Positions 2,965 to 61,889 of a DNA stretch of 64,000 bases are shown one piece after another. The stretch's first letter is position 1. Every line of letters starts with the position of its first letter. Origin of the DNA: Rhodoferax sp. (lineage in GTDB: Bacteria; Pseudomonadota; Gammaproteobacteria; Burkholderiales; Burkholderiaceae_C); assembly GCF_034520025.1 (NCBI RefSeq), contig NZ_JAXHNZ010000002.1, forward strand, positions 1,722,460 through 1,786,459, written 5' to 3'. Below the pieces are notes generated by a model. That model was not told where the DNA came from. It searched no databases and saw nothing but the letters and a program-made list of their open reading frames with translations. Both the position numbers and the translations under genes were made by a program.

Positions 2965-3083
2965 AAAAACCCTCAAATAAATGTAAAGCACTCAGCGCAC
3001 AACGCCACACATCCGGTGCAGGCTGACGCATTTGCATTGTGTTACCAAAAGAGACAGCACCGCCCCACCGGTTAGCATCTGGC

Positions 3084-4781
3084 ATGCCTTTGACACCCCA
3101 CTGGATTCGCCACTACCCGAGGCAGCACCTGCGAGACGACTTGATAGCGGGTGTGTTGCTCACCGTTCTGGTCATTCCCCAGAGCTTGGCCTATGCCATG
3201 CTGGCTGGCCTACAGCCACAGGCCGGGCTGTATGCGAGCATATTGCCGGCCATCGCTTACGCTTGGTTCGGCAGTAGCATGGTGCAGGCGGTAGGGCCGG
3301 TAGCCATTACTGCCATCATGACGGCCAGTGTGCTGGGCCCCTTAGCACCCGTTGGAAGCGCGCTCTACCTTCAGCTGGCCGTGTGGCTAAGCCTGGGCTC
3401 TGGCGTGCTGATTACGTTGTGCGGGCTGGCTCGCTTGGGTTTTTTATCCCAACTGCTGAGCAAGCCTGTGGTCAGTGGGTTTATCACGGGCTCTGCACTG
3501 CTCATCATCTTGAGCCAGCTGCGATTCATCGGCGGCATAGATGCCCGCGGAAGTACAAGCTGGCAACTCCTGCACAGCCTTTGGGCTTGGCTGCCCGACA
3601 TCCATGCTCCAACCCTCCTGCTGGGAGTAGGCGCCGTTGTCGCCTTAGCCTTGGCGCGCACAGGTCTGAAGCGCTGGCCAATGTGGCAACGTTTGTTTCC
3701 ATTGTTGTTGATACTGGTCTGCCCTTGGGTAGTGCAAGGGCTGGCCCTGGACCCGGACCAGCGTATTGCGGTGGTGGGCCCTGTGTCGCTGGAGTGGGCA
3801 TCTTTCGACTTTTCGATGCCCCACCCGTCCGTCTTCAGTGCATTGGTTGGTCCGACGTTTCTGATCGCCTTTATCGGCATGGTGCAAGGTATCACCATGG
3901 CACAAGCATTGGCCACCCAACGGCGGGAGCGTATCGATGCCAACCGGGAACTGCTCGGGCTGGGGGCTGCGAATATCGCGGCCACCTTCAGTGGCGGTAT
4001 GCCGGTCGGGGGCGGCCTGAGCCGCTCGGCGATCAATGTGGCATCGGGTGCACAGACGCCCTTGGCGGGCATTGTCTCTGGCGTCAGCATGTTGGCAGTT
4101 TTGCTGCTCGGCACAGATTGGCTGAATCACGTTCCATTAGCGATTCTTGCGGCCAACATCATCATTGCGGCCTGGGGAATGATCGACCTCACCGCTTTGC
4201 GACAGGCATGGACTTATGACCGAGCGGATGCAATCGCTTGGCTGGGCGCCGCATCGGGGGTGCTGGCTCTAGGGATTGAAACCGGGATTGCCGTGGGTAT
4301 CGGCTTGTCACTGGCGACCCTTTTGTGGCGCACTAGCTCACCCCATATCGCTGTCATCGGCCGCTTGCCGGGCACACAATCGTTCCGGAACGTGAACCGG
4401 TACGCCACTGAAACACTGCCCCGGACACTGATGTTGCGGATCGACGAGAGTCTGTTTTTCGGCAATTTGCAAGCGGTGGAAGAACGCCTCGGACTGGAAC
4501 TCGCCCGGGCGCCAGACACCCAAGATGTGGTGTGGGTCATGACCGCGGTGAACCGGGTAGACACCTCTGCCATGGCGGCACTGCTCAACTTGAACCGGGA
4601 CCTCAAGGATCGCGGCATCCGCATGCATTTTGCGGAGGTGAAAGGCCCGGTACAAGACCGTTTGGTGCACACGCCCCTGTGGACTGAGCTCTCCGGTGAG
4701 TTCTTTCACTCGGTGCCCGATGCGTTCGCTGCCCTCCAAGCTTCGCGGCAGGAGCCACACGACGCCGCTTTGTCGATCTAA
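3084..4781 (+). CDS. SulP family anion transporter with STAS domain
   Basis: DDLIAG...IPQSLAYAMLAG..PQAGLY signature, many TM helices, C-terminal STAS (LRIDESLFFGN, VDTSAM). ORF from 3039; ATG 3084 preferred. Confidence 0.93.
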   Translation: MPLTPHWIRHYPRQHLRDDLIAGVLLTVLVIPQSLAYAMLAGLQPQAGLYASILPAIAYAWFGSSMVQAVGPVAITAIMTASVLGPLAPVGSALYLQLAVWLSLGSGVLITLCGLARLGFLSQLLSKPVVSGFITGSALLIILSQLRFIGGIDARGSTSWQLLHSLWAWLPDIHAPTLLLGVGAVVALALARTGLKRWPMWQRLFPLLLILVCPWVVQGLALDPDQRIAVVGPVSLEWASFDFSMPHPSVFSALVGPTFLIAFIGMVQGITMAQALATQRRERIDANRELLGLGAANIAATFSGGMPVGGGLSRSAINVASGAQTPLAGIVSGVSMLAVLLLGTDWLNHVPLAILAANIIIAAWGMIDLTALRQAWTYDRADAIAWLGAASGVLALGIETGIAVGIGLSLATLLWRTSSPHIAVIGRLPGTQSFRNVNRYATETLPRTLMLRIDESLFFGNLQAVEERLGLELARAPDTQDVVWVMTAVNRVDTSAMAALLNLNRDLKDRGIRMHFAEVKGPVQDRLVHTPLWTELSGEFFHSVPDAFAALQASRQEPHDAALSI

Positions 4782-4930
4782 GCGCAGCCTTTGAGTGGCA
4801 CCACAGGTTTTGGTGCAGTCTTGCACTGTCTTGCTTTGAGCGCGCTAGACTGAGACACTGCCCCCGGGGCGGATCACCCTTGTTCACCGCGCACTGTCGT
4901 GCGAGGACCTGTTTTTTAGGAGCGCTAGTT

Positions 4931-5425
4931 ATGGCTAAAAATGTGGCACCCAAGATGCCGATCGACATCGGTATCAGCGAACGCGAGCGAAAGAAAATTG
5001 CCGAAGGCTTGTCAGGTCTTTTGGCAGACAGCTACACCCTGTACCTGATGACGCACAACTTTCACTGGAACGTGACAGGCCCCCAGTTCAATAGCTTGCA
5101 CACCATGTTCATGGCGCAGTACACCGAGCAGTGGACCGCTCTGGATCTGATTGCCGAGCGCATCCGCGCACTGGGTTTTCCAGCGCCGGGCACCTACAAA
5201 GAGTTCACCAAGCTTGCCAGTATCAAAGAGGTCGAGGGCGTGCCCAAAGCCAACGAGATGATTCACCACCTGCTGGCTGCACAAGAAGCTACTGCGCGCA
5301 CTGCCCGCAAGCTGTTCCCCGTGGTGGATGCCGCGAATGACCAGCCCACCGCAGATGTCTTGACCCAGCGTATTGACGTCCACGAAAAAACGGCCTGGAT
5401 GCTGCGCAGCCTCATCACCGAGTAA
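4931..5425 (+). CDS. dps: Dps family ferritin-like DNA protection protein
   Basis: THNFHWNVTGPQF, DLIAERIRALG, HEKTAWML ferroxidase motifs. Confidence 0.95.
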   Translation: MAKNVAPKMPIDIGISERERKKIAEGLSGLLADSYTLYLMTHNFHWNVTGPQFNSLHTMFMAQYTEQWTALDLIAERIRALGFPAPGTYKEFTKLASIKEVEGVPKANEMIHHLLAAQEATARTARKLFPVVDAANDQPTADVLTQRIDVHEKTAWMLRSLITE

Positions 5426-10452: not shown

Positions 10453-11904
10453 TCAAGCTTTCGGCTTTTTGACCGGGCGACTCCAGTTGGGAATGCTCAC
10501 CTGCTTGCCACGGGCCACGCTCAATGCGCCAGCCTCGGTGCTCTTGGTGATGGTGGAGCCACCACCCACAGTTCCCCCAGCCCCGATGGTGACAGGGGCC
10601 ACCAACACACAGTTGCTGCCGATGTGCACATCAGCCTCAATCACTGTGCGGTGTTTGTTCGCACCGTCGTAGTTGGCGGTGATGCTGCCGGCACCGTAGT
10701 TGACCCGCTCACCCACCGTGGCATCGCCCAAATAGGCGAGATGATTGGCTTTGGCACCGGCGGCCATGGTGGAGTTTTTCACTTCCACAAAGTTGCCAAT
10801 GTGCACCTCGGGCCCCAGCCGCGCGCCGGGGCGCAAGCGGGCAAACGGCCCGATGAGCGCGCCAGCCCCCACGCTCACGCCCTGCTTCTCGCCATCGATA
10901 TGGGTGAAAGGATGAATCACGACACCCGCCTCGATCACGGCATTCGCGATCACGCAATTCGCGCCGACCGAAACCCCTTCCCCCAAACTCACCTGCCCCG
11001 CAAACACGCAGTTCACATCGATGCTGACATCGTGGGCGCAGAGTAAATCGCCCCGCACATCAATGCGGGCAGGGTCTGCCAGGCGCACGCCTTCTTCCAT
11101 CAACCGGTGCGCTTGCTGCAGTTGGTAGGCCCGCTCCAGCTCTGCCAGTTGTACCGGGCTGTTCACACCGGCGACCTGCACCGCGTCGGTGATCTTGTGC
11201 CCGACCACTTCGACACCATCCGCCACCGCGAACTTCACGACATCGGTCAGGTAATACTCTTGCTGGGCATTGCGGTTGTCCAGGCGAGCTAGCCAGGCCT
11301 TCAGCCGCGCAGCAGGCACCGCCATGATTCCGCTGTAAATCTCGGTGATGGCGCGCTGCGCTTCGCTGGCGTCTTTGTGCTCCACGATGGCCTGCACCGC
11401 GCCACTGGCGTCGCGCACGATACGCCCATAACCGGCCGGGTTGCTTTGCTCCAGCGTCAGCAGGGCCAGCTTGTCACCGCCACTGGCCTGGATCAAGTGA
11501 AACAGCGTGTCAGATTGGGTCAAGGGCACATCACCGGACAAGACCACCACCACACCGTCATCCGGCAGTGCCGGCACAGCCTGCTGCACCGCGTGCCCAG
11601 TGCCGAGCTGAGGCTCCTGCCGCACGAAATTCAAAGAAAAACCGGCGCTAGCCCCCGAAAAACCTGCGCAGACTGCTTCAACTTCGATAGCACCATGCCC
11701 GGTGATCACCACCACATGGCGGGCCTGCAAATCGGCAGCCGTATCGACCACATGTTGTAACAGCGGCCGGCCGGCCAAGCGCTGCAAGACCTTGGGAATT
11801 TTGCTACACATGCGCGTGCCTTTGCCCGCCGCCATAATGACCACATCCACCGGTGCAGTAGACGATTCGACGTTTGCAAGAGGGGAACTAGAAGTCAAAG
11901 CCAT
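10453..11904 (-). CDS. glmU: Bifunctional UDP-GlcNAc pyrophosphorylase / glucosamine-1-P acetyltransferase
   Basis: IMAAGKGTRM, QLGTGHAV, LSGDVPL, EYYLTD, hexapeptide repeats, KANHLAYLGDA. Start uncertain. Confidence 0.98.
   Translation of the reverse strand: MALTSSSPLANVESSTAPVDVVIMAAGKGTRMCSKIPKVLQRLAGRPLLQHVVDTAADLQARHVVVITGHGAIEVEAVCAGFSGASAGFSLNFVRQEPQLGTGHAVQQAVPALPDDGVVVVLSGDVPLTQSDTLFHLIQASGGDKLALLTLEQSNPAGYGRIVRDASGAVQAIVEHKDASEAQRAITEIYSGIMAVPAARLKAWLARLDNRNAQQEYYLTDVVKFAVADGVEVVGHKITDAVQVAGVNSPVQLAELERAYQLQQAHRLMEEGVRLADPARIDVRGDLLCAHDVSIDVNCVFAGQVSLGEGVSVGANCVIANAVIEAGVVIHPFTHIDGEKQGVSVGAGALIGPFARLRPGARLGPEVHIGNFVEVKNSTMAAGAKANHLAYLGDATVGERVNYGAGSITANYDGANKHRTVIEADVHIGSNCVLVAPVTIGAGGTVGGGSTITKSTEAGALSVARGKQVSIPNWSRPVKKPKA
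11634..11693 (-). repeat. 60-bp dispersed motif, copy 1 (inside glmU, in frame)
   Basis: GTGCTATCGAAGTTGAAGCAGTCTGCGCAGGTTTTTCGGGGGCTAGCGCC...; encodes GAIEVEAVCAGFSGASAGFS. Confidence 0.75.
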
Positions 11905-18972: not shown

Positions 18973-20274
18973 ATGCCTTCCCACCCCACCGGCACCCACC
19001 TCAACACCGGCACCTTTTTGGTGGGCGGCGCGGTGCGCGACGCCCTTTTGGGCTTGGAAGTCAAAGACCGCGATTGGGTGGTCGTGGGTAGCAGCCCCCA
19101 GCAGATGCTGGATGCGGGCTTTATGGCTGTGGGCAAAGACTTCCCGGTGTTTTTGCACCCCCGCACCCAAGAGGAATACGCGCTGGCCCGCACCGAGCGC
19201 AAGACCGCGCCCGGCTACCGCGGCTTTGCGGTACACGCTGCGCCGGACGTGACGCTGGAAGAAGACCTTGCCCGGCGCGACCTTACTATCAATTCCATAG
19301 CTGCTCGCGCAGAAAGCACCTGGGCCAATGGTACTTTTGATGCTAAAAACTTGATAGACCCCTTCGGCGGCCAGGCCGACCTGCAGAGGCGCGTGCTGCG
19401 CCATGTGACCCCCGCCTTCCGCGAGGACCCGGTGCGCATCCTGCGCGTAGCCCGCTTTGCCGCGCGGTTGACCGAGTTCGCCGTGGCTCCCGAAACCACG
19501 GCGCTCATGCAGGCCATGGTGGAAGACGGCGAGGTGGACCACCTGGTGCCCGAGCGCGTGCGGCAAGAGCTGTCCAAAGGGCTGATGGAAGCCCGCCCCT
19601 CCCGCATGTTCGAGGTGCTGCGCAGCTGCGGAGCCCTGAAGCGCCTTCTGCCTGAACTGGACCGCCTGTGGGGCGTGCCCCAGAGCCCCGAGCACCACCC
19701 CGAGGTCGACACCGGTGTGCACGTCATGCTGGTGCTGGACCGCGCCGCCCAACTGGGTGCGCCACTGGCGGTGCGCTTTGCCTGCCTGGGCCACGACCTC
19801 GGCAAAGGCACCACGCCCACCGACGTGCTGCCCCGCCACATCGGGCATGAGGAACGCAGTGCCCGCCTGCTCAAAGCGGTGTGCCAGCGCCTGCGGGTGC
19901 CCAACGACAGCGCCGAGCTGGCCGACGTGGTGGCCCGCGAGCACGGCAACATCCACCGCAGCGGCTCGCTCAATGCTGCTGCCCTGCTGCGCCTCCTAGA
20001 GCGCTGCGACGCCATCCGCAAACCCGAGCGCTTTCGCGCGGCATTGCTTGCCTGCCAGTGCGATGCCCAAGGCCGCCTTGGCCTGACCGACACGCCTTAC
20101 CCCCAAGCCCAACGGCTGGGGCAGGCCCTCGACTTGGCGCTGGCCGTCGCTACAGATTCCATAGCTGCTCGCGCAATAGCGGCGGGCGCTACTGGCCCAA
20201 AGATTGGTCAATTCATCCAAACCGCACGCGCTGACGCTATTGCGGCTGGGCTGGCACCGGCGCCGCTTGCCTGA
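18973..20274 (+). CDS. cca: Multifunctional CCA-adding/repair enzyme
   Basis: LVGGAVRD..DRDWV, VGKDFPVF, RRDLTINS, FREDPVRILR, HD domain HDLGKG. Confidence 0.97.
   Translation: MPSHPTGTHLNTGTFLVGGAVRDALLGLEVKDRDWVVVGSSPQQMLDAGFMAVGKDFPVFLHPRTQEEYALARTERKTAPGYRGFAVHAAPDVTLEEDLARRDLTINSIAARAESTWANGTFDAKNLIDPFGGQADLQRRVLRHVTPAFREDPVRILRVARFAARLTEFAVAPETTALMQAMVEDGEVDHLVPERVRQELSKGLMEARPSRMFEVLRSCGALKRLLPELDRLWGVPQSPEHHPEVDTGVHVMLVLDRAAQLGAPLAVRFACLGHDLGKGTTPTDVLPRHIGHEERSARLLKAVCQRLRVPNDSAELADVVAREHGNIHRSGSLNAAALLRLLERCDAIRKPERFRAALLACQCDAQGRLGLTDTPYPQAQRLGQALDLALAVATDSIAARAIAAGATGPKIGQFIQTARADAIAAGLAPAPLA
19283..19342 (+). repeat. 60-bp dispersed motif, copy 2 (inside cca, in frame)
   Basis: TTACTATCAATTCCATAGCTGCTCGCGCAGAAAGCACCTGGGCCAATGGTACTTTTGATG; encodes LTINSIAARAESTWANGTFD. 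Confidence 0.88.
20147..20206 (+). repeat. 60-bp dispersed motif, copy 3 (inside cca, in frame)
   Basis: TCGCTACAGATTCCATAGCTGCTCGCGCAATAGCGGCGGGCGCTACTGGCCCAAAGATTG; encodes VATDSIAARAIAAGATGPKI. Confidence 0.88.
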
Positions 20275-26926: not shown

Positions 26927-28189
26927 TTACTTTTGCTTTGGCGCGCTAACTGCGACCAATTTGGCGACGGCTTCGCTCACGCTCAGCTTGTCGTTGTTCC
27001 AGAACTCGCTTACTGCAGCGCGCATTGCAGCTTGCTGCGACGACGGCAATGCCATGCCATGTGCCACCGACGGAACCAGTGAGCCCGCAGCGGAGGTGGC
27101 GACAAAGTCTTTGCTGGAGGTTTTGGCGCAGTCGTCAAACTTGTCCATGTTCATACCCAAGCGGACCGGAATGGAGCCCTTGCGCAGATTGAACTTCTCC
27201 TGAAACTCTTTGCCCATCAACAAATAGGCCAGATAGCCCTGGGCCTTTTGGGCCTCCCAGCCTTTGAGCTGGAACATGGCAAAAGAGTCAACGTTAAAGG
27301 TATAGGCGTTGGCAGTGCCAGGGGCTGCTGAGCAGGTGAACTCTTTGCCCGGCGTTTGGCCTGCAGCCAGGAACTCGCCTTTGGCCCAATCGCCCATGAA
27401 TTGGAAACCGGCTTTGCCGTTGATCACCAGTTCGGTGGTGATATTCCAGTCGCGGCCGCTGGAGGCGGGGTCGGTATAGCTCTTGAGGCGGCGGAAAGTC
27501 TCTAGCGCCTTTTTCATGTCATCGCTGTTGATAGCAGCGCGGTCAAGTTTGACCAGTGCCTTGTCGTAAAGGCTTGCACCGCCCACACCCAGCACCACGG
27601 ACTCAAACACCGTGAAGTCTTGCCAGTCTTGGCCACCGTGGGCCAGGGGGATCAGGCCGGCGGCCTTGATTTTGTCAGCGGCAGCAAAAAACTCGTCATA
27701 GGTTTTGGGCAACGCGGCAACGCCTGCTTTTTTGAGCACGGCGGAGTTGGCCCACAACCAGTTCACCCGGTGCACATTGACAGGGACGGCCACATAGCGG
27801 CCTTTGTGTTTCATTTGGTCAGCAACGACCTTGGGGAGCGTTTCGTCCCACTTCTCGAAAGACGCCATTGCGTCGAGGTTGGTCAGTACACCCAACTCAG
27901 CCCACTCCTGAATGGCAGGGCCCTTGATATTGGCGGCTGCAGGGGCATTACCAGCCAGCACCCGCTGCTTGAGTACGGCCATGGCGTTCTGGCCACCACC
28001 ACCGGTCACGGTGAAGTCGCGCCAAGTGTGCCCACGTTTTCCCATCATGTCTTTGAGCTCAACCACCGACTTGGCTTCGCCGCCAGAGGTCCAATAGTGC
28101 AGCACCTCGACCTCTCCCGCGAACACGCTTGCGCCTGCGCATAAAGCACATGCAGCGGCAAACCGGCGCGCGAAAGCTGTAAAAGCCAT
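26927..28189 (-). CDS. Sugar ABC substrate-binding protein, second paralogue (GtsA-like)
   Basis: EVEVLHYWTSGGE, PVNVHRVNWLW, FMGDWAKGEF, NLRKGSIPVR. Confidence 0.93.
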   Translation of the reverse strand: MAFTAFARRFAAACALCAGASVFAGEVEVLHYWTSGGEAKSVVELKDMMGKRGHTWRDFTVTGGGGQNAMAVLKQRVLAGNAPAAANIKGPAIQEWAELGVLTNLDAMASFEKWDETLPKVVADQMKHKGRYVAVPVNVHRVNWLWANSAVLKKAGVAALPKTYDEFFAAADKIKAAGLIPLAHGGQDWQDFTVFESVVLGVGGASLYDKALVKLDRAAINSDDMKKALETFRRLKSYTDPASSGRDWNITTELVINGKAGFQFMGDWAKGEFLAAGQTPGKEFTCSAAPGTANAYTFNVDSFAMFQLKGWEAQKAQGYLAYLLMGKEFQEKFNLRKGSIPVRLGMNMDKFDDCAKTSSKDFVATSAAGSLVPSVAHGMALPSSQQAAMRAAVSEFWNNDKLSVSEAVAKLVAVSAPKQK

Positions 28190-28219
28190 GGGAATAGACC
28201 TGAAGAACACGGGATTTAA

Positions 28220-28290: not shown

Positions 28291-29541
28291 TTACTTTGTA
28301 GCAGCGGCCTTAGCGATGTTCTTAACGCCGTCAGCAACGGAGATCTTGTCGTCGTTCCAGAACTGGGACACGGCATCCTTGATCGCGCCTTCAGCAGCGG
28401 GCTTGATAGCCATGCCGTGGGCCACGGAAGGAACCAGGCCACCGGATTTGGCGGTGTCCACGAAATCCTTGGCGGATGTCTTGGCGCAATCGTCAAACTT
28501 GTCCATCTTCATGTTCAAACGAACAGGAATAGAACCCTTGTTCAAGTTGAACACTTCCTGGAACTCGGTGCCCATGATGGAAGCAGCCAGATCAGCCTGT
28601 GCCTTTTGAGCGCCAGCGTCCTTGAGCTTGTACATAGCGAACGAGTCCACGTTGAAGGTGTATGCGTTAGCGGTGCCTGGAGCAGCAGCGCAGACGTAGT
28701 CCTTGCCGGGAACCTTGCCAGCAGCGGAGAACTCACCCTTGGCCCAGTCACCCATGAACTGGAATGCGGCCTTCTCTTGGATCACCATGGCAGTGGCTAG
28801 GTTCCAGTCGCGGCCAGGAGCGGCTGCGTCGGTGTAACCCTTGACCTTGCGGAATGTTTCCAGGACCTTAGTCATGGTGGCGCTGGTCAGAGCCTTTTCG
28901 TCGAGCTTGATCAACGCGTCGTTGTAGAACTTGACACCGCCCACGCCCAGAGCCACAGACTCAAAGGTGGTGAAGTCTTGCCAGTTCTGGCCACCGTGTG
29001 CAACGGGGATCAGGCCAGCCTTCTTGACTTTTTCAGCAGCAGCAAAGAAGTCGTCCCATGTCTTGGGAGTGGAGGTCACGCCGGCCTTTTTCAGCACAGC
29101 AGAGTTAGCCCACATCCAGTTCACGCGGTGCACGTTCACGGGAGCAGCAACGTAGTTGCCCTTGTACTTCATGACGTCTGCAACCACCTTGGGCAGCAGG
29201 TCGTCCCACTTTTCGGCCTTGGCAGTTGCGTCGAGGTTAGCCAACACGCCTTCAGATGCCCACTCCTGGATGGCTGGACCCTTGATCTGGGCAGCTGCAG
29301 GTGGGTTGCCGCTCACGACACGGCTCTTCAGCACGGTAGCAGCGTTGTCACCGCCGCCGCCAGCCACTGCGAAGTCTTTCCATGTGTGGCCCTTGCCTTG
29401 CATGATCTTCTTCAGTTCAGCCACAGACTTGGCTTCGCCGCCGGATGTCCAGTAGTGCAGGACTTCCACTTCACCAGCCACAGCGGCCGAACCAGCAACC
29501 ACGAGTGCCACTGCGGTGGCGAGTTTAGAAAGCTTCAACAT
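28291..29541 (-). CDS. Sugar ABC substrate-binding protein, first paralogue (GtsA-like, glucose type)
   Basis: Signal peptide, EVEVLHYWTSGGEAKS, AVAGGGG, PVNVHRVNWMW, FMGDWAKGEF; highly biased codons. Confidence 0.95.
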   Translation of the reverse strand: MLKLSKLATAVALVVAGSAAVAGEVEVLHYWTSGGEAKSVAELKKIMQGKGHTWKDFAVAGGGGDNAATVLKSRVVSGNPPAAAQIKGPAIQEWASEGVLANLDATAKAEKWDDLLPKVVADVMKYKGNYVAAPVNVHRVNWMWANSAVLKKAGVTSTPKTWDDFFAAAEKVKKAGLIPVAHGGQNWQDFTTFESVALGVGGVKFYNDALIKLDEKALTSATMTKVLETFRKVKGYTDAAAPGRDWNLATAMVIQEKAAFQFMGDWAKGEFSAAGKVPGKDYVCAAAPGTANAYTFNVDSFAMYKLKDAGAQKAQADLAASIMGTEFQEVFNLNKGSIPVRLNMKMDKFDDCAKTSAKDFVDTAKSGGLVPSVAHGMAIKPAAEGAIKDAVSQFWNDDKISVADGVKNIAKAAATK

Positions 29542-29715: not shown

Positions 29716-30696
29716 TCAGGCCACTACCAGCGCCAAAGCAGCGTAATCACCAACCTTGTCGCCCAATCCGGCCGGAACTACCTGCACACCGTTGGTCAGT
29801 GCGGGGAGCTTGCCCTGCAATGACGCTTGCAGCTTCGGCAACAAGAACTCGCGGTTGTGCCAGAACACGCTACCGCCCACGCTAATGCGCTCCAGATCAA
29901 GCGTGACCACCATGTTGTAGAGGGTGCGGCCCATCACATCGCACAGGTCATCCACTATGGCTGTAGCCCCCGGATCACCTGCGCGAGCCGCTACAAAAAG
30001 AGTAGCAGCATCCGTAAAACCTTGGGCGGCGAAGCGACGCGGAATCGCATTACCCGCTACCAAACCCTCGACATCGCCCACATTGCCGCAACCGCAGAGC
30101 GCATCGGTGTTGGTGCTCACGAACGTGTGGCCGGCATGGCCGGCGTTGCCGTTCTTGCCGCGCAAGATACGACCATCCACGCACAAGCCCATCCCGATAC
30201 CGGTGCTCCACGTCACGTAGGCACAGTTGGCAACACCTTGCAAAGCGCCCCAGCGGCGCTCGGCCTCCAAGGCGCCCACGCCATCGTTTTCGACACGGAC
30301 ATTGGGGAAAGCGGCTTTGAGCGGCGCCTCCAGCAGCGCGGTAACCCAGTCATTGGGAAGGCCGCGGGCCTTGCCGGCCAAGCCGCCACAGATGTTGGGG
30401 CCTGCCAGCTCGACCATGCCGCCATTGATCACAAAAGGCCCGCAAGTGGCCACGCCCACGGCGGCAATGTCTGCCACCGCCACACCCGCCAAGGCGCAAC
30501 TCTCGCCCACCATGCGGATGATCTGGCGTGCCAGAGCGTCGTTGGAGCCTTCTTTGGCGGTGGGCTCAGAGACTTTGCCACGCACACCTGCGGCGTCGGC
30601 AATATTGACTGCCACCTTGGTGCCGCCGATGTCTACGCAGGCAACCGGCTTGCTGCCGGGTGCGATGTTCAGTTCAATGTCGTGGGTCAAAGCCAT
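29716..30696 (-). CDS. ROK family sugar kinase (no HTH)
   Basis: CVDIGGTK, VENDG, STGIGMG, GHAGH, CGCGNVGDVE, VGGSV, LGDKVGDYAA. Confidence 0.88.
   Translation of the reverse strand: MALTHDIELNIAPGSKPVACVDIGGTKVAVNIADAAGVRGKVSEPTAKEGSNDALARQIIRMVGESCALAGVAVADIAAVGVATCGPFVINGGMVELAGPNICGGLAGKARGLPNDWVTALLEAPLKAAFPNVRVENDGVGALEAERRWGALQGVANCAYVTWSTGIGMGLCVDGRILRGKNGNAGHAGHTFVSTNTDALCGCGNVGDVEGLVAGNAIPRRFAAQGFTDAATLFVAARAGDPGATAIVDDLCDVMGRTLYNMVVTLDLERISVGGSVFWHNREFLLPKLQASLQGKLPALTNGVQVVPAGLGDKVGDYAALALVVA
29949..30008 (-). repeat. 60-bp dispersed motif, copy 4 (inside the ROK gene, in frame)
   Basis: CTGCTACTCTTTTTGTAGCGGCTCGCGCAGGTGATCCGGGGGCTACAGCCATAGTGGATG; encodes AATLFVAARAGDPGATAIVD. 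Confidence 0.82.
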
Positions 30697-40576: not shown

Positions 40577-42331
40577 ATGAGCAAAATCATCGTTTTCGCC
40601 ACCCCGGTTTTCTTCCTCCTCATCGCCCTAGAGTTCGCCTGGAGCCGACGTGCCAACGCCCGCGTGCCGGGCAGCCGGGCCTATCGCCTCAACGACGCGA
40701 TCAACAGTATCAGCCTCGGCATCCTGAGCCAGGTGGCAGGGGTGCTCAGCAAAGTGCTTGCCGTGGGCATTTATGCTGCAGTGTTCAAAGCCGTGGCCTT
40801 GTACCCCGACCTTGCGTTCTGGAGCACCTGGTACGGCGTGGTGCTGGCGCTGGTGTTTTACGATTTTTGCTACTACTGGCTGCACCGCGCCGGCCACGTG
40901 GTGGCGCTGTTCTGGGCGGCCCATGTGGTGCACCACCAGAGCCAGCACTACAACCTGTCGACCGCTTTGCGCCAGACCAGCAGCGGGGCATTGTTCGGCT
41001 GGGTGTTTTACCTGCCGATGGCTATAGCCGGGGTGCCACCGCTGATTTTCGGCATCGTGGCGCTGATCGACCTGCTTTACCAGTTCTGGGTGCACACCGA
41101 GCAGGTGGGCAAGCTAGGCTGGTTTGACCGCGTGTTTTGCTCACCCAGCAACCACCGGGTGCACCACGCAGTGAACGACCCATACATCGACAAAAACTAC
41201 GGAGGCATCCTGATGCTGTGGGACCGCATGTTTGGCACTTTCCGTGAGGAAGATGAGCCCTGCGTGTACGGCACCCGCGGCGCGCTCAACAGCTGGGACC
41301 CGGTCTGGGCCAATGCCGAGGTTTACTGGGGTCTGGCCAAAGACAGCTGGGCCACCCGCCGCTGGGTCGACAAGCTGCGCATCTGGTTCATGCCGCCGGG
41401 CTGGCAACCGGCAGACCTGGCCGCGGCCCATCCCAAACCCGCATTCTGCTTGGAGCAAGTGCAGACGTTTAACCCACCCTTAAGCACCCGCCAGCATTGG
41501 TTCGCAGGCCTTCAGTTCTTAGCTCTGCTGGGTGCTGTGGCGGCATTTTTGTGGGTGGCGGACAGCCTGAGCTTTACCGATGCTGCGCTCTACGCTTCGG
41601 GTCTGTTTGCCTCGGTATGGGCGGTAGGCCGATTCATGCAACATGGCCTGAGCACGCTGGAAGTGTTGGCAGTAGAGACTGCGGCTTGGGCGAGCCTGAG
41701 TGCCGTGGACCTGCTGCCTGGCCACTTACTAGCCAAACCGTTGGTGATGACAATCGCTATTATTTTTGTAGCAACTCGCGCTTATTTCATGAGCGCCAGT
41801 GAACAAAAACACTTCAAATCGACTAGTCTGCTACTTGCGGCGTTGGCATTTTCGCTGGCCGGTGATGTGTTTCTGATGCAGCCCGGCGACTATTTCATTC
41901 CCGGGCTGGCAGCGTTTCTGGTGGCGCACGCCTTCTACATCGCCCTGTTCCGGCAGGATGCGCCGTGGTTTGCTAACCGCAGGGCGTTGCAAAGTGTGCT
42001 GGCCGTTGGCGCCGGAGTGTATGCCGTGCTGTGGAGCCACTTGCCCGACATGGGCCTGCAAATCGCTGTGGCGGCCTACATCACGGTGATTTGCCTGATG
42101 ACCTCACAAGCCTTGGGCAGAGCCAGCACATTGGGTGATGCGGCTGCGGCGCGCGTGGCTTTGGGCGCCTGCATCTTCATGGCGAGTGACGCGCTGATCG
42201 CGGTCAACAAGTTCCTGATGCCGGTGCCGCTGGCATCGTTCTGGATTTTGGTGACTTACTTTGCTGCGCAGCTGTTGATCGTGCACTTTGCACGCCCCGC
42301 CGGTAAGGCTGCCGCCAACGCGATCGATTAG
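40577..42331 (+). CDS. Fusion: alkylglycerol monooxygenase-like (sterol desaturase family) + YhhN lysoplasmalogenase-like domain
   Basis: His boxes [27 protein letters not shown], then DKNYGG. C-terminal [34 protein letters not shown]. Confidence 0.85.
41754..41813 (+). repeat. 60-bp dispersed motif, copy 5 (inside the YhhN domain, in frame)
   Basis: TCGCTATTATTTTTGTAGCAACTCGCGCTTATTTCATGAGCGCCAGTGAACAAAAACACT; encodes [20 protein letters not shown]. Confidence 0.88.
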
Positions 42332-44702: not shown

Positions 44703-44718
44703 GGCGGCACGAAGCGAA

Positions 44719-44778
44719 TTGCTATCAAAAATATAGCTGCGGGCGCAATCAAAACCTGCGCTAGAGGCCTATTTGGCC
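44719..44778 (+). repeat. 60-bp dispersed motif, copy 6 (between CA and ruvA, overlapping the ruvA stop)
   Basis: TTGCTATCAAAAATATAGCTGCGGGCGCAATCAAAACCTGCGCTAGAGGCCTATTTGGCC. Confidence 0.9.
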
Positions 44779-45341
44779 AATGACTTCAGCGCCATCTTGA
44801 TGCCTTCGCTGACACCCACATCTTTGGGCAGGGCCTTGAGTGCGGCGGCCGCTTCCTTGTCACTGTAGCCCAGAGCCAGCAGCGCCTGCAGGATGTCAGA
44901 CTGCGCATCGCCCACGGCGCCCAGAGGCGCCCCAAGGTCTGCACCCAACTTGCCCTTGAGCTCCAGCAGCAAGCGCTCAGCCGTTTTCTTGCCAATGCCC
45001 GGCACCTTGATCAAGCGGCCCGCCTCCTGCAAGGTGACCGCCTGTGCCAAGTCGCCCACGTCCATGCCTGACAGCACGGACAAGGCGGTACGCGGCCCCA
45101 CACCAGAGATCTTGATCAATTCCCGGAACGCCTCGCGCTCGGTGCTGGTGGCAAAACCGTACAGAATTTGTGCGTCTTCCCGCACCACAAAGTGGGTAAG
45201 CAGCGTGACCTTGTTGCCGTCGGCGGGCAGGTTGTAGAAGGTGCTCATGGGCACCTGCACCTCGTAGCCCACGCCGCCGCAGTCGATGATGACTTGCGGT
45301 GGGTTTTTGTCGCTGACGATGCCTGTGAGTTTGCCGATCAT
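44769..45341 (-). CDS. ruvA: Holliday junction branch migration protein
   Basis: [59 protein letters not shown]. Confidence 0.98.
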
Positions 45342-46963: not shown

Positions 46964-46989
46964 TCCTTGTTGGTGGTGCGCTCCGGAGC

Positions 46990-47067
46990 AGCCGCCTTGG
47001 GCGCTTTGCTCTGTGTCCCCCGCGCTTCGCGCTCCTCCTTGACCTGCGCAAAGCGCCCAAGGCGGCT
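46990..47067. repeat. 20-bp perfect inverted repeat element (REP/MITE-like, terminator-capable)
   Basis: AGCCGCCTTGGGCGCTTTGC ... GCAAAGCGCCCAAGGCGGCT, 38-nt interior with a GCGC-TTC-GCGC mini-hairpin, followed by TTT. Confidence 0.8.
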
Positions 47068-47112
47068 TTTCCTACGGATTATTCCTTGCGAGGGATGACC
47101 TGCGCCCCTCTA

Positions 47113-48348: not shown

Positions 48349-48836
48349 AGGTAGTCAAGCGAACGTGATGCGGCCTCGATAGGCGCCACCCGCATGGGAA
48401 TCGTCACTGGCCCGTCATTGACAAGCTCCACCTGCATGTCCGCGGCGAATATGCCGGTCTGCACAATGGAGTGCGCGGTGCGGGCCTGGGCCACAAAGTA
48501 GTCATACAAACGCCGCCCCTCATCGGGCGCAGCAGCCGCCTTAAAGCTGGGCCGGTTGCCGCCGGAGGTATCCGCAGCCAGCGTGAACTGGCTCACAAGG
48601 AGCAAGCCACCGTGCTGGCCTGCGCCGTCCAGATCTTGCACGCTGCGGTTCATCTTGCCGTTTGCATCGCTAAAGATGCGCAGCTTGAGCAACTTGGACA
48701 AGAGCTTGTCGGCCTGCGCTTCGGTATCACCCTGCTCGGCGCAGACCAATACCAGCAGGCCTTGCACAATCTTGCCCACCGTTGCGCCGCCCACCACCAC
48801 CTGTGCGCGGCGAACGCGCTGCACGACCGAGATCAT
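48345..48836 (-). CDS. dtd: D-aminoacyl-tRNA deacylase
   Basis: [44 protein letters not shown]. Confidence 0.97.
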
Positions 48837-48896
48837 GGTGTTTTTGGCCTCCAGCCCTTATAAAACATGCGCAAGCAGCTATGAAAATAGGAGCAA
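48837..48896 (-). repeat. 60-bp dispersed motif, copy 7 (entire tyrS-dtd intergenic spacer)
   Basis: TTGCTCCTATTTTCATAGCTGCTTGCGCATGTTTTATAAGGGCTGGAGGCCAAAAACACC, between the tyrS TAA and the dtd ATG. Confidence 0.9.
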
Positions 48897-50141
48897 TTAC
48901 GCCAGCGTCACGCGGGCAAATTTGCGCTTGCCCACTTGAAGAACATAGGTGCCCGCGCCTAGCTTCAAGCCCTTGTCGCTGACCACATTGCTGTCTACAC
49001 GCACGCCACCACCGTCAATCAAGCGGTTACCTTCGCCGCTGGAGGCGGCCAGGTTTGCAGACTTCAGCAGCGCGCCGATGCCTACCGCCGCACCCCCTTC
49101 GCCCAAAGACAAGGTGATTTCGTCGATCTGGTCCGGGATGCCACCCTTGCTGCGGTTAATGAAGTCTTGCTCTGCCGCATCGGCCGCAGCAGCGCTGTGA
49201 AAGCGGGCCGTGATCTCCTTGGCCAGCGCCACCTTGGCATCTTTGGGGTTGCGCCCGCCTTCGACTTCGGCCTTGAGCGCGGCGATTTCTGCCTCGCTCT
49301 TGAAGCTTAGCAGCGTGTACCACTTCCACATCAGCACATCAGAGATGCTCAGCACCTTGGCGAACATGGTGTTGGGCTCTTCCGAGATGCCAATGTAATT
49401 GTTTTTGCTCTTGGACATCTTCTCGACGCCGTCCAGCCCTTCGAGCAGCGGCATGGTCAAGATGCACTGGGGCTCCTGGCCGTATTCGGCCTGCAGGGTG
49501 CGGCCCATGAGCAGGTTGAACTTCTGGTCAGTACCGCCTAGCTCAAGGTCGCTTTCCAGCGCCACCGAGTCGTAGCCCTGCATCAAAGGGTAGAGGAATT
49601 CATGCACCGCAATGGGGGTACCAGCCTTGAAGCGGTCGTGGAAATCATTACGCTCCATCATGCGGGCCACGGTATAGCGGCTCGCCAGCTGGATCATGCC
49701 GCGCGCACCCAGTGGATCGCTCCACTCGCTGTTGTAGCGAATTTCGGTTTTGGCAGGGTCCAGCACCAGGCTGGCTTGGCGGTAGTAGGTCTCGGCGTTG
49801 ACCTTGATCTGCTCGGCCGTCAGTGGCGGGCGCGTACTGTTGCGGCCGGACGGGTCGCCGATCATGCTGGTGAAGTCACCAATCAAAAAGATGACCGTGT
49901 GGCCCAAGTCTTGCAACTGGCGCATCTTGTTGAGCACCACGGTGTGGCCGATGTGGATGTCAGGCGCGGTCGGGTCCAGCCCCAGCTTGATGCGCAGCGG
50001 TTTGCCGGTGGCTTCTGACTTGGCGAGCTTTTTCACCCACTCGTCTTGCGGAAGCAATTCTTCTACGCCGCGCAGGGTGACCGCAAGGGCCTCACGCACA
50101 CGATCGCTTACAACTAATTGGGGGCTTAAGGCTTGATTCAT
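48897..50141 (-). CDS. tyrS: Tyrosine--tRNA ligase
   Basis: [37 protein letters not shown]4 domain QVGKRKF. Confidence 0.98.
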
Positions 50142-59079: not shown

Positions 59080-59991
59080 TCAACCCGCCTTGCGGGCACA
59101 AATAAAGAATTCGCGGTTTCCGTCTCCACCTTCGATGGCGGAGTCAAACCAATGGGTCACGGTGAGCCCGAGGTCTGCACACGTCTCGCGCAAGCGCTGT
59201 TCCACGATCGGGTACATGGCTGGATCTTTGACGATCCCGCCCTTGCCCACCTGGCCGGGCTGCAGCTCGAACTGGGGTTTGACCAGAGTGAGCAACATGC
59301 CACCCTCTTTGAGCAACTCCACCGCTGCAGGCAGCACCAGGGTCTGCGAAATAAAGGACAGATCAGCCACGAGCAGATCAAAGGGCGGAGCAAACTCAGG
59401 CGGCAGTTCTACCGGTTCTGGCTCGGCAGCCTCTTGCGCCGGAGCCGCGTCTTCGTCGTCGAAGTCGTCTTCATCGCCCCAGTCATCCACGCTGTCTGAT
59501 TCTTCATCAAATTGGCCGCCCGCGCCGGTGCTATCTGCGTAAGCAGCTACCAAATCCATAGCAGACAGCGTGCGCGCGTTGACAGACTCGACGCACAGCA
59601 CACGCGGATCGCTGCGCAGCGAGGGATGCAACTGGGCACTGCCCACATCCACGCCCACGACCGATTGCGCACCGGCTTGCAGCAAGCAATCAGTGAAGCC
59701 ACCGGTGCTTTGCCCCACATCCAGACAACGCAGTCCGGTGACAGACAAGCCGACGTGCTTCAGGGCAGCTTCGAGCTTGAGGCCACCGCGGGACACGTAA
59801 CGCGCTTCGGAATCATCGAGCAAACGGATCTTGGCGCCATCGGGCACTTCATCGCCATTTTTGGCCACACGTTTCCAGACTTCGCCCGCAAGCTCCATCT
59901 TCAGCCACTCCACGCCATCCGCAATCAGGCGCTGGGCCTGCGAGCGGGTGCTGGCCAGCCCGCGCTGCACCAAAAGTTGATCAATTCGCAT
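59080..59991 (-). CDS. tlyA: TlyA family rRNA 2'-O-methyltransferase
   Basis: MRIDQLL S4 domain, YVSRGGLKL, LDVGQSTGGFTD, DLSFIS, LVKPQFE, GGDGNREF. Confidence 0.94.
   Translation of the reverse strand: MRIDQLLVQRGLASTRSQAQRLIADGVEWLKMELAGEVWKRVAKNGDEVPDGAKIRLLDDSEARYVSRGGLKLEAALKHVGLSVTGLRCLDVGQSTGGFTDCLLQAGAQSVVGVDVGSAQLHPSLRSDPRVLCVESVNARTLSAMDLVAAYADSTGAGGQFDEESDSVDDWGDEDDFDDEDAAPAQEAAEPEPVELPPEFAPPFDLLVADLSFISQTLVLPAAVELLKEGGMLLTLVKPQFELQPGQVGKGGIVKDPAMYPIVEQRLRETCADLGLTVTHWFDSAIEGGDGNREFFICARKAG
59505..59564 (-). repeat. 60-bp dispersed motif, copy 8 (inside tlyA, in frame)
   Basis: CTGCTATGGATTTGGTAGCTGCTTACGCAGATAGCACCGGCGCGGGCGGCCAATTTGATG; encodes SAMDLVAAYADSTGAGGQFD. Confidence 0.88.
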
Positions 59992-60108: not shown

Positions 60109-61629
60109 TTAATAGCGGTAAGTGTCCGCCTTGTAGGGGCCGGCTTGACTCACACCGATGTACGCGGCCTGTTCTGCGGTCAGCTCGCTCAGCATCGCGC
60201 CAACCTTCTTCAAGTGCAAACGTGCCACCTTTTCATCCAAGTGCTTGGGCAAGACATAGACCTGACCGGCCTTGTATTCCTTGGGCTTGGTGAACAGTTC
60301 GATCTGTGCGATCGTCTGGTTTGCAAAGCTGGAAGACATCACAAAGCTGGGGTGGCCGGTGCCGCAACCCAGGTTCACCAAGCGGCCCTTCGCCAACAAG
60401 ATGATGCGCTTGGAAGCCTTCTTGCCCTTGGCAGGGAAGATCACGTGGTCCACTTGGGGCTTGATCTCTTCCCACTTCAGCTTTTCCAGCGAAGCGACGT
60501 CGATTTCATTGTCAAAGTGACCGATGTTGCAGACGATGGCTTGGTCCTTCATGGCTTCCATGTGCTTGAAGGTGATGACGTTTTTGTTGCCCGTGGCGGA
60601 CACAAAAATATCGGCCTTGTCGGCAGCGTATTCCATGGTCACGACCTTGTAGCCTTCCATGGCGGCTTGCAAGGCGTTGATCGGGTCAATTTCTGTCACC
60701 CATACTTGGGCGGACAAAGCACGCAGCGCCTGGGCGGAGCCCTTGCCCACGTCACCGTAACCAGCGACCACAGCGACCTTGCCGGCAATCATCACATCGG
60801 TGGCGCGCTTGATCGCGTCGACCAAAGACTCGCGGCAGCCGTACAGGTTGTCGAACTTGCTCTTGGTCACCGAGTCATTCACGTTGATGGCGCGGAATGC
60901 CAATGTGCCCTTGGCAGACATTTCGTTCAAGCGCAGCACACCGGTCGTCGTTTCTTCAGTCACGCCAATGATGTTCTTCAGGCGGCGGCTGTACCAGGTG
61001 GGGTCCACCTTCAGTTTGGCCTTGATGGCATTGAACAGGCAGATTTCTTCTTCGCTACCGGGCTTGGCCAAAACCTTGATGTCCTTCTCGGCGCGGGCGC
61101 CCAGGTGCATCAACAAGGTGGCATCGCCGCCGTCATCCAGAATCATGTTCGGGCCTTCAGCCGCAGTGCCCTTCTTGCCGCCGAATTCAAAAATGCGGTG
61201 GGTGAAGTCCCAGTACTCTTCCAGGGACTCGCCCTTGTGCGCGAACACGGGGGTGCCCTTGGCCACCAGCGCAGCAGCTGCGTGATCCTGGGTGGAGAAG
61301 ATGTTGCACGAGGCCCAACGAACTTCGGCGCCCAGGGACTGCAGGGTTTCGACCAGCACGCCGGTCTGAATGGTCATGTGCAGGGAACCGGTGATGCGCG
61401 CGCCCTTCAGAGGCTGGGCCTTGGCGAACTCTTCACGGATGGCCATCAGGCCGGGCATTTCGGTTTCGGCGATGGTCAGCTCTTTGCGGCCCCAATCGGC
61501 CAGGCTCAGGTCGGCGATCTTGAAGTCTTCAAATTGGGCCACGACGGCCTTTGCGGCAGTTACCGCTTTGACGGCCTTCACAGCCTTGGGGGTCTTGGCG
61601 TTCTTAACCAGTTTCAATACAGCGCTCAT
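60109..61629 (-). CDS. ahcY: Adenosylhomocysteinase
   Basis: [63 protein letters not shown]. Confidence 0.99.
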
Positions 61630-61716
61630 GGTGTGCTCCAAACGTTGATTTGCATAGCCACTGGCACACTCGGGGAGGGAATTTGACAAGCAACTCACCG
61701 CACGCGTTTCCAGTGG

Positions 61717-61818
61717 GTGAGCGCCGTTGTGAAGGCACGGTGCTGATTGCACCGTGTGTTCCGAGCCTCACTCGCGGTACCTACATGGGTACATGGCGGG
61801 CTGCAACGCTCCTCGGAA
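61717..61818 (-). ncRNA. SAH riboswitch upstream of ahcY
   Basis: Minus strand TTCCGAGGAGCGTTGCAG...AGGCTCGGAA...CAACGGCGCTCAC: P1 pairing plus pseudoknot partner typical of SAH riboswitches. A TAAAAT -10 box lies just upstream (61826-61831). Confidence 0.92.
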
Positions 61819-61889
61819 TGTGCGCATTTTAACCATGCGCCGATGCCACACCGCGCCGCCGGGACAATGCCCCGACAAGTCGAGTGCAC

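Follow-up and report, generated by a model that had tools for sequence, protein, structure and literature searches.

A ~60-nt REP-like motif overlies conserved codons of the ROK kinase gene and the cca C-terminus of Rhodoferax without added length and under DNA-level constraint

The gene of a ROK-family sugar kinase in Rhodoferax sp. carries, over one of its conserved helices, a copy of a composite motif of ~60 nt that also occurs in unrelated genes and in spacers around it. The DNA studied is a 64,000-nt stretch (NZ_JAXHNZ010000002.1 of assembly GCF_034520025.1, positions 1,722,460-1,786,459), and this whole stretch is referred to here as the window. We show that the ROK copy and a copy in the C-terminal part of cca were formed in place over compatible codons, that they are under a constraint that acts on the DNA, and that the family leaves fossils when it is lost. 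The repeat family is found in Rhodoferax, Polaromonas, Curvibacter, and relatives, and the ROK segment is a genuine member of it. The kinase, named glucokinase or ROK family protein in the sources, is 94% identical to that of 'Comamonadaceae bacterium OS-4', and the window TlyA protein is 98% identical to its counterpart there. The gene and its motif copy are located as follows.

29716..30696, minus strand: ROK-family sugar kinase gene, 326 aa from the ATG (MALTH...), Pfam PF00480
29947..30012, minus strand: motif copy in the ROK gene, encoding DAATLFVAARAGDPGATAIVDD, with no added length

The motif consensus is TT-GCTAY-N7-RTAGC-TGCTYGCGCA-N8-GGGGCTAGAGGCC-nATTTGAT. The ROK copy reads GCT ACT CTT TTT GTA GCG GCT CGC GCA GGT GAT CCG GGG GCT ACA GCC ATA GTG GAT, and the peptide DAATLFVAARAGDPGATAIV(DD) is encoded exactly at 29953-30012 on the minus strand. 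The initial annotation had placed the copy at 29949-30008, which is off by 4 nt in register and runs into stop codons if translated as written. Membership of the family is supported by a score of 33 bits with a hidden Markov model (HMM) built from 61 non-ROK copies only and by an E-value of 1e-8 with an HMM built from 117 independent metagenome copies.

The proposal that this copy encodes the normal ROK helix with zero extra length is borne out by orthologues, structures, and distant representatives alike. The 22 motif codons are gap-free in 81 ROK sequences, comprising the window and 80 orthologous loci at 71-94% amino acid identity, and the segment aligns ungapped to the Thermus glucokinase 3vov (DTRELFRLFQAGDPKAERLVLQ) and to NanK 6jdc. 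The alignment is also ungapped over this segment in 44 distant full-length representatives, down to ~30% identity, among which the pattern x-L/V-F-x-A-A-R-A-G-D-x-x-A-x-x-x-V recurs; P0243, at 57% identity, reads DLMQAARAGDAHALAHVD. Because this pattern recurs in such deep representatives, AARAGD..A..V is an ancient ROK pattern, and the ROK peptide predates the motif. The fixed motif block GCT GCT CGC GCA falls on the ancient A-A-R-A, and the ROK-specific residues L-F, R, and G-D occupy the variable positions (loops) of the motif. Since the residues specific to ROK are kept at just these variable positions, the copy arose in situ on a helix that suited it. Polaromonas ROK genes have I-L instead of the conserved L-F, together with a hairpin shifted to CTAT...ATAG.

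The resemblance might be produced by amino acid constraint and codon usage alone, or by a selected peptide or a rare-codon pause cluster, and the ROK peptide is indeed inherently compatible with the motif through AARAGD, with some recodings reaching 22-24 bits. This explanation is nevertheless extremely improbable. With a weight matrix built from non-ROK copies only, the ROK copy scores 42.2 bits, and 5000 recodings of the same peptide with window codon usage have a mean of -4.9 bits (standard deviation 8.0, maximum 24.2), none of them reaching the real score. A second weight matrix, built from independent metagenome copies, gives the ROK copy 41.1 bits versus -15.1±9.8 for 3000 synonymous recodings, of which again none reaches the real score, and each of the other five in-gene window copies beats 3000/3000 synonymous recodings of its own peptide. 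The ROK and CCA matches are thus not those expected from amino acid constraint and codon usage (0 of 3000-5000 recodings per test, 0/8000 for ROK in all). Orthologues with the same peptide in normal codons score below zero, the same 60-nt sequence also occurs in non-coding spacers and in antisense orientation, and the conservation lies at synonymous sites and involves rare codons. An origin by chance or peptide constraint was rejected on the basis of the recoding simulations together with the synonymous-site conservation.

The distribution of scores among the ROK orthologues is bimodal. The motif is borne by 55 of the 81 sequences (the window and 54 loci), all scoring at least 27.7 bits, and the remaining 26 score at most 6.5 bits, 23 of them below zero, while encoding a near-identical peptide in ordinary GC-rich codons; in one such locus, L011, the segment reads AAQLFAAARAGDVPAQAIVDD. 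Only three weak intermediates occur, and these are decay-like. In motif-bearing ROK genes the GC content at third codon positions (GC3) is 0.14-0.45 over the 22 codons versus 0.61-0.89 in the rest of the gene. Among motif-bearing pairs with less than 82% amino acid identity, the codon is identical, given an identical residue, at a frequency of 0.743 in the motif versus 0.531 elsewhere, and the profile of synonymous codon identity peaks at the motif, where rare codons are involved. In motif-less pairs the corresponding values are 0.383 at the motif versus 0.538 elsewhere. The loop sequence is particular to each host site and is retained there from species to species, and the conservation is that of orthologous copies being kept, not of homogenisation among the copies of one genome. 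The ROK copy is held by purifying constraint on the DNA itself at synonymous sites, in parallel with the other copies of the family in the genome.

Presence of the motif is an all-or-none property of the genome. The neighbourhoods of motif-bearing ROK genes contain 63 other copies in 828 kb (7.6 per 100 kb), versus a single copy in 274 kb around motif-less ROK genes, and this one lies at a locus with a half-decayed ROK copy. Locus L011 is nested among motif-bearing Rhodoferax and has no copies; its first cca site holds a sequence of the same length that is GC-rich and clearly homologous (ACCATCAATGCCATGGCCGCGCGCGTGGACCCCACTGGAGCCATAGGCCTGCTGGAC), which is read as a fossil of a lost motif. A neighbour-joining tree of the ROK gene with the motif columns removed requires one origin and 11 losses versus 19 independent gains, so that the ROK copy looks like the product of one ancient origin followed by ~11 losses, to the extent that such a tree can tell.

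Eight copies of the motif occur in the window, six within genes (glmU, cca twice, ROK, the YhhN fusion, and tlyA) and two between genes. The model built from the 117 independent metagenome copies recovers the same eight and no others. Copies of the motif score 15-50 bits, and all eight copies in the 64 kb are single, with none in inverted pairs. The six in-gene copies are all sense and read in a single frame, encoding A-x-x-x-(V/I/E)-A-(A/V/T)-(R/Y/C)-A...G-A. The seven copies outside the ROK gene are the following.

11635..11695, minus strand: degenerate motif copy in glmU, encoding HGAIEVEAVCAGFSGASAGFS
19282..19344, plus strand: motif copy at cca site 1, with TINSIA as its first six codons
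20146..20207, plus strand: motif copy over the cca C-terminal helix, encoding VATDSIAARAIAAGATGPKIG
41753..41813, plus strand: motif copy in the YhhN-like C-terminal half of a 584-aa fusion open reading frame (ORF; 40577-42331)
44717..44780, plus strand: canonical intergenic copy between convergent genes
48835..48898, minus strand: intergenic copy filling the spacer of two same-strand genes
59503..59564, minus strand: motif copy in tlyA, encoding SAMDLVAAYADSTGAGGQFDE

The length contributed by the motif differs among the host genes: 0 in ROK, 0 at the cca C-terminus, +7 aa in GlmU, ~+4-8 aa in the YhhN fusion, and +6 to +10 aa at cca site 1. At the four sites that are not length-neutral, 4-10 native codons are overlaid and roughly 4-13 motif-coded codons are added, and a clean insertion of ~20 aa is seen at none of the sites. 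A second overprint without a change in length is the copy at the cca C-terminus. It covers V.T..IA..A...G..G..IG, and its product VATDSIAARAIAAGATGPKIG has the same length as motif-less orthologues such as VETEAVAAQAMARGAKGMQIG and VSTQAIAEEAMASGLKGPKIG, in a comparison that included orthologues from genomes with the motif elsewhere. The initial annotation was right that a cca copy covers the G..G..IG segment, but it counted three copies in this gene; three different models find two in total and no third. It also had one copy begin inside RRDLTIN(S/A)IA, and there the codons ACT ATC AAT TCC ATA GCT do encode TINSIA, which lies on the conserved RRDLTINA(I/L/M)A. By a hand count, native TINAIA codons match 12/17 bases of the 5' block of the motif. 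The extra length at this site is ~10 aa relative to L052 and to Escherichia coli and 6 aa relative to Aquifex 1vfg; E. coli GlmU and YhhN sequences also served for comparison. TINS in place of TINA, with TCC for GCC, occurs only in motif-bearing cca genes (window 19285-19302; L003, L009, L013, L014, L021, and others), and motif-less cca orthologues keep TINA.

The copies in glmU and tlyA had been described as looking more like added loop sequence. Extra residues are present in both, but native codons are overlaid as well, ~10 of them homologous in GlmU and those of AMDL in TlyA. In GlmU, HGAIEVEAVCA is aligned with HGGDHVKKTFA of 5vmk and is followed by 7 residues that are extra with respect to the solved GlmU structures; the segment is common to 120/120 close relatives. 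In TlyA, AMDL is aligned with PVDF of 3hp7 and is followed by ~45 extra aa; these are highly conserved where the motif encodes them and hypervariable in the acidic remainder, which makes up most of the insertion. No empty site was found for either gene, all homologues found being at least 79% identical and all having the segment. In the YhhN fusion the copy lies over the last part of the first YhhN membrane helix and over the loop after it, and it is present in 13/13 orthologues. From the substitutions TINS in CCA and I-L in Polaromonas ROK, it seems that the DNA motif alters conserved residues.

Two of these host proteins have further features of their own. The TlyA linker (window 59380-59500, residues ~164-195) is D/E-rich, 20-60 residues long, and directly follows the motif segment; its length differs in almost every relative, and it is absent from the solved TlyA structures. 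The 584-aa ORF at 40577-42331 on the plus strand is an apparent fusion of an N-terminal membrane domain with histidine boxes (HxxxH, HxxHH) and a C-terminal YhhN-like domain, and it is kept at ~570-600 aa in at least 12 related loci.

The 3' end of the intergenic copy at 44717 provides the TAG stop of a minus-strand gene, and an orthologous copy occupies the same site in Curvibacter sp. APW13 (L058); the intergenic copy at 48835 places TGGAGGCC 9 nt upstream of the ATG of the following gene. A promoter and terminator scan returned nothing at either copy, and neither a duplicated target site nor inverted repeats at the termini were noticed. No empty sites were found among related loci, every syntenic relative being filled at similar length, and for this reason insertion boundaries and target duplications cannot be defined.

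A wider census was based on an exact-core pattern search, which returned more than 116 metagenome stretches and 43 viral contigs. Its assignment of copies to coding or intergenic DNA rests on a heuristic ORF and GC3 caller. On these calls canonical copies are mostly intergenic, with 16 in convergent, 16 in co-directional (7 versus 9 by orientation), and 2 in divergent spacers, and 24 copies lie in ORFs, 12 sense and 12 antisense. The idea that copies are nearly always coding and sense was therefore dropped, as this unbiased census is mostly intergenic and half of its ORF copies are antisense. The antisense in-gene copies use one frame, A-Q-A-A-x-x-x-V-A, and those in L085, L104, L129, L149, L159, L181, and L187 encode (P)-L-A-P-V-x-x-A-Q-A-A-(T/I)-x-x-V-A, so that Ala-rich, helix-like peptides come from both orientations of the motif. 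Two copies were found in 3 of 159 pattern-anchored loci, at least 1.1 kb apart. In one locus (L128, 1683-2985) two inverted copies flank a 1.2-kb block that, judged from translations, encodes an ArfB-like peptidyl-tRNA hydrolase with a GGQ motif and a VapB/VapC-like pair with a PIN domain, and no transposase. The 43 viral contigs (L197-L239, IMG/VR) match the motif core exactly and include near-identical groups, e.g., L207, L209, L230, and L233. Sequencing runs that match the locus are metagenomic DNA only, and a literature search found the core words of the motif in no paper.

The conserved features of the element are sequence blocks, not base pairs. RTAG stands directly 5' of the GC-rich segment in every copy, and this segment is a clean palindrome only in some variants, e.g., CTAGCGC...GCGCTAG in L107; the common form GCTTGCGCA...GGGGGCTAG gives no consensus stem by alifold. 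GCTA-N9-TAGC is invariant, and its fifth pair (C-G in 29, C-A in 28, T-G in 18, and T-A in 8 copies) shows no covariation. A structured RNA element in mRNA, acting in processing, stability, or as a binding site, could explain why the in-gene copies of the window are sense only: sense orientation is seen in all eight window copies and at every recurrent in-gene site near ROK, REPs elsewhere are considered to act in part at the RNA level (PMC3733652), and the 48835 copy puts GGAGG 9 nt before an ATG. Such a role is quite unlikely, since no fold is common to the copies, the single-sequence folds (z-scores -1.9 to +1.2) are no better than shuffles and differ between copies, the first hairpin lacks covariation, and no consensus second hairpin was found when RNAalifold was applied to both strands of 117 canonical copies, only the stems of the search pattern being returned. 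Rfam also has no family matching the motif, either at the gathering score over the whole window, where only an unrelated riboswitch appears, or with the E-value limit raised to 10 near the two intergenic copies, and sense and antisense counts are equal in the wider census. It is most likely the DNA rather than the RNA that is read.

In its distribution the motif resembles the REP/BIME and REPIN-RAYT elements, which are short and interspersed in hundreds of copies (PMC3733652, PMC2817692). The resemblance rests on the spacer distribution, mainly downstream of genes in convergent or co-directional and rarely divergent spacers, on an RTAG tetranucleotide that abuts the 5' side of a GC-rich segment, which in some motif variants forms a perfect palindrome, and on a 3' end that can provide a TAG stop (PMC3733652). 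The family is likewise present or absent per genome, and a minority of REPs elsewhere are intragenic. Unlike the extragenic REPs, six of the eight window copies lie inside genes, the wider family being mostly intergenic; two of these recode conserved helices with no change in length, in contrast to intragenic REPs in the literature, which, like RPE inserts, are described as insertions (PMC3733652). The second stem is barely palindromic in the commonest motif variant, copies are single and not the inverted dimers of REPINs and BIMEs, and no RAYT or IS200 transposase gene was found by tblastn with three RAYT or IS200 seeds in the window and 239 loci, 2.4 Mb in total.

Rickettsia palindromic elements (RPE-1 and relatives) are insertions of 100-150 nt that add ~35-50 residues. 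The motif is like them in lying in frame in many unrelated housekeeping genes, in using one reading frame with a shared Ala-rich peptide, and in being kept at orthologous sites across species. It differs in adding 0 to ~13 motif-coded residues, in overwriting conserved native residues, and in the synonymous-site constraint demonstrated here. In-frame mobile insertions in general would also account for a single frame and a related peptide in all host genes, but the host ROK protein and the CCA C-terminus are not longer by the length of the element. The highly iterated palindrome HIP1 of cyanobacteria, of 8 nt, is similarly an over-represented DNA word kept inside coding sequence, but the motif is an asymmetric composite element of 60 nt.

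DNA uptake sequences (DUS) of Neisseria and uptake signal sequences (USS) of Pasteurellaceae offer an analogy for the length-neutral sites (PMC2817400). In both cases coding copies occur without indels (here in ROK and the cca C-terminus), at peptide-compatible sites, and in preferred frames; local peptide content is shifted (for the motif, S instead of A in TINA and V or I at a variable position); copies are found in both orientations and are enriched at the 3' ends of genes; and a trans-acting reader is involved, which for the motif would be a presumption. The motif differs in having ~60 nt in three fixed blocks versus a core of 9-12 nt, in a density that is roughly ten times lower, and in that some copies add sequence. 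The comparison made in the initial annotation is an analogy; nothing here points to DNA uptake, competence, or uptake bias. A beta-proteobacterial repeat element (BRE) has been reported in Polaromonas, Rhodoferax, Acidovorax, and Delftia (Hot et al. 2011, PMC3110155). Identity with BRE was rejected: BRE has an unrelated sequence (TTTTTGGCCGCGGGCCGCCCAAGGCAAAAAAGCCCCCTCGGGGGGCAGC...), is 75-91 bp long with 69% GC, and forms tandem arrays, and no core word of the motif occurs in the published BRE sequences of Bordetella.

The best joint explanation, to which we assign a probability of roughly 0.5, combines formation of the copies in place by templated patch replacement, purifying constraint on the DNA, and a trans-acting reader. 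The ancient helix A-x-L-F-x-A-A-R-A-G-D-x-x-A already fitted the fixed blocks of the motif (GCT..., GCT GCT CGC GCA, GGG GCT), and ~20 ROK codons have been replaced by rare AT-rich synonymous or near-synonymous codons without an indel. The likeliest route would be one templated replacement of a short patch from another copy, anchored on chance similarity, in which the 5' part overlays native codons and only the non-fitting part is added. Patch replacement is preferred because this single mechanism covers both the length-neutral sites and the partial overlays at cca site 1, GlmU, YhhN, and TlyA, and it is also fitted by the bimodal ROK scores. Behind the constraint would be a trans-acting reader specific to the lineage, probably a protein that binds or processes DNA, as for REP and uptake sequences. 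Such a reader is suggested by the 63 versus 1 other copies, by the L011 fossil, and by the pattern of one origin and 11 losses. Upon its loss all copies would relax to ordinary GC-rich codons, and fossils of the same length would remain. The earlier view that the motif implies selection or a targeted conversion mechanism, and not simple transposition, is supported, as a clean insertion of ~20 aa is seen at no site and the ROK and CCA matches are not attributable to peptide and codon usage.

A serious rival for the length-neutral sites is a stepwise process like that of uptake sequences, in which every better match to the motif is rewarded genome-wide under selection or molecular drive, single synonymous or conservative substitutions accumulate at compatible sites, and any added residues arise by separate insertions. 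The demonstrated purifying constraint means that a selective gradient exists, the spread of copy scores from 15 to 50 bits and the enrichment between convergent genes agree with it, as does all-or-none presence and decay per genome, and uptake sequences themselves are known to build up within coding DNA where the position tolerates them and in favoured frames (PMC2817400). It is a possible but doubtful account, given that ~20 coordinated rare-codon changes are needed across 60 nt, that only the three decay-like intermediates interrupt the bimodal ROK scores, that the 12-30 nt added at cca site 1, GlmU, and YhhN need a second mechanism, and that the motif is 5x the longest known uptake sequence at a density of ~1 per 8-13 kb versus ~1 per kb. 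An in-frame insertion of a REP-, RPE-, or MITE-like (miniature inverted-repeat transposable element) sequence followed by a compensating deletion of adjacent native codons would agree with the REP- or MITE-like, mostly intergenic nature of the family (16 convergent, 16 co-directional, and 2 divergent), with known intragenic REPs and RPEs, which are interpreted as insertions adding 20-30 aa or more (PMC3733652), and with the extra residues in TlyA, GlmU, and cca site 1. It is unlikely, and disfavoured for ROK. The change in length is exactly zero in ROK and the cca C-terminus, and host residues are in register (L-F, R, and G-D in the former, G..G..IG in the latter), so that an exact deletion of 20 codons would be a coincidence. 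No allele with 20 additional codons occurs among 81 ROK, ~28 CCA, 120 GlmU, and 120 TlyA relatives, and neither target-site duplications nor terminal inverted repeats were noticed at the two intergenic copies.

Several points weigh against the joint explanation of patch replacement, DNA constraint, and a reader. No donor-recipient conversion tract is observed; the exact blocks shared between copies are only ~15 nt, which is short for conversion of the RecA type. As the ROK copy looks like a single origin, probably one unobserved event, only few independent overprinting events are observed, and the gene tree is a neighbour-joining tree of one protein of 326 aa. The demonstrated purifying selection could also build the length-neutral copies stepwise. 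The seed search in 2.4 Mb yielded no RAYT- or IS200-like gene as a trans-acting reader, and the coding and intergenic classes of the metagenome copies depend on a crude caller. In addition, the copy is sense at 8/8 independent in-gene sites of the window and the vicinity of ROK, which is unpredicted by a purely DNA-level explanation. A bolder version of patch replacement, which we consider rather unlikely, is that an active system copies the ~60-nt motif over loosely similar resident DNA, including conserved coding helices. The replacement would be homology-anchored and carried out by an element-encoded or domesticated enzyme of the HUH/RAYT or reverse-transcriptase type, not by cut-and-paste, and host dependence would hold the copies at synonymous sites over a genus-level time span.

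Some other features of the window are unrelated to the motif. An S-adenosylhomocysteine (SAH) riboswitch (RF01057) at 61712-61820 on the minus strand, scoring 52.4 bits versus a gathering score of 37, sits at the 5' end of a long minus-strand ORF (60109-61752). An inverted repeat of 25 nt at 46985-47072 is 92% complementary with a 38-nt spacer (GGAGCAGCCGCCTTGGGCGCTTTGC / GCAAAGCGCCCAAGGCGGCTTTTCC). Directly downstream of the ROK gene lie two tandem paralogous ORFs on the minus strand, 26927-28210 and 28291-29541, with ~72-78% DNA identity over several blocks at an offset of 1358 nt. Their translations look like periplasmic sugar-binding proteins, and they adjoin ABC-transporter ORFs.

Repeats inside bacterial genes are usually read as tolerated insertions, and here a long, composite, REP-like motif is length-neutral in conserved helices of enzymes that are essential or housekeeping. 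It forces rare codons and, it seems, even residue changes, such as TINS for TINA in CCA and I-L for L-F in Polaromonas ROK. Across Rhodoferax, Polaromonas, and Curvibacter the motif is maintained at synonymous sites, and in lineages without the family it has decayed throughout the genome. A non-coding DNA signal of ~60 nt can, on this evidence, shape protein sequence. Sites with and without the motif, fossils of the same length, and genomes that have all copies or none make up a natural system for studying the function of REP-like elements and their reader. For annotators and users of codon models, local clusters of rare codons with a low rate of synonymous substitution (dS) in this group may mark an embedded DNA element. 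If the patch-copying system were true, it would represent a new mode of spread for bacterial repeats and a DNA-level force that changes residues in motifs as conserved as RRDLTINA.

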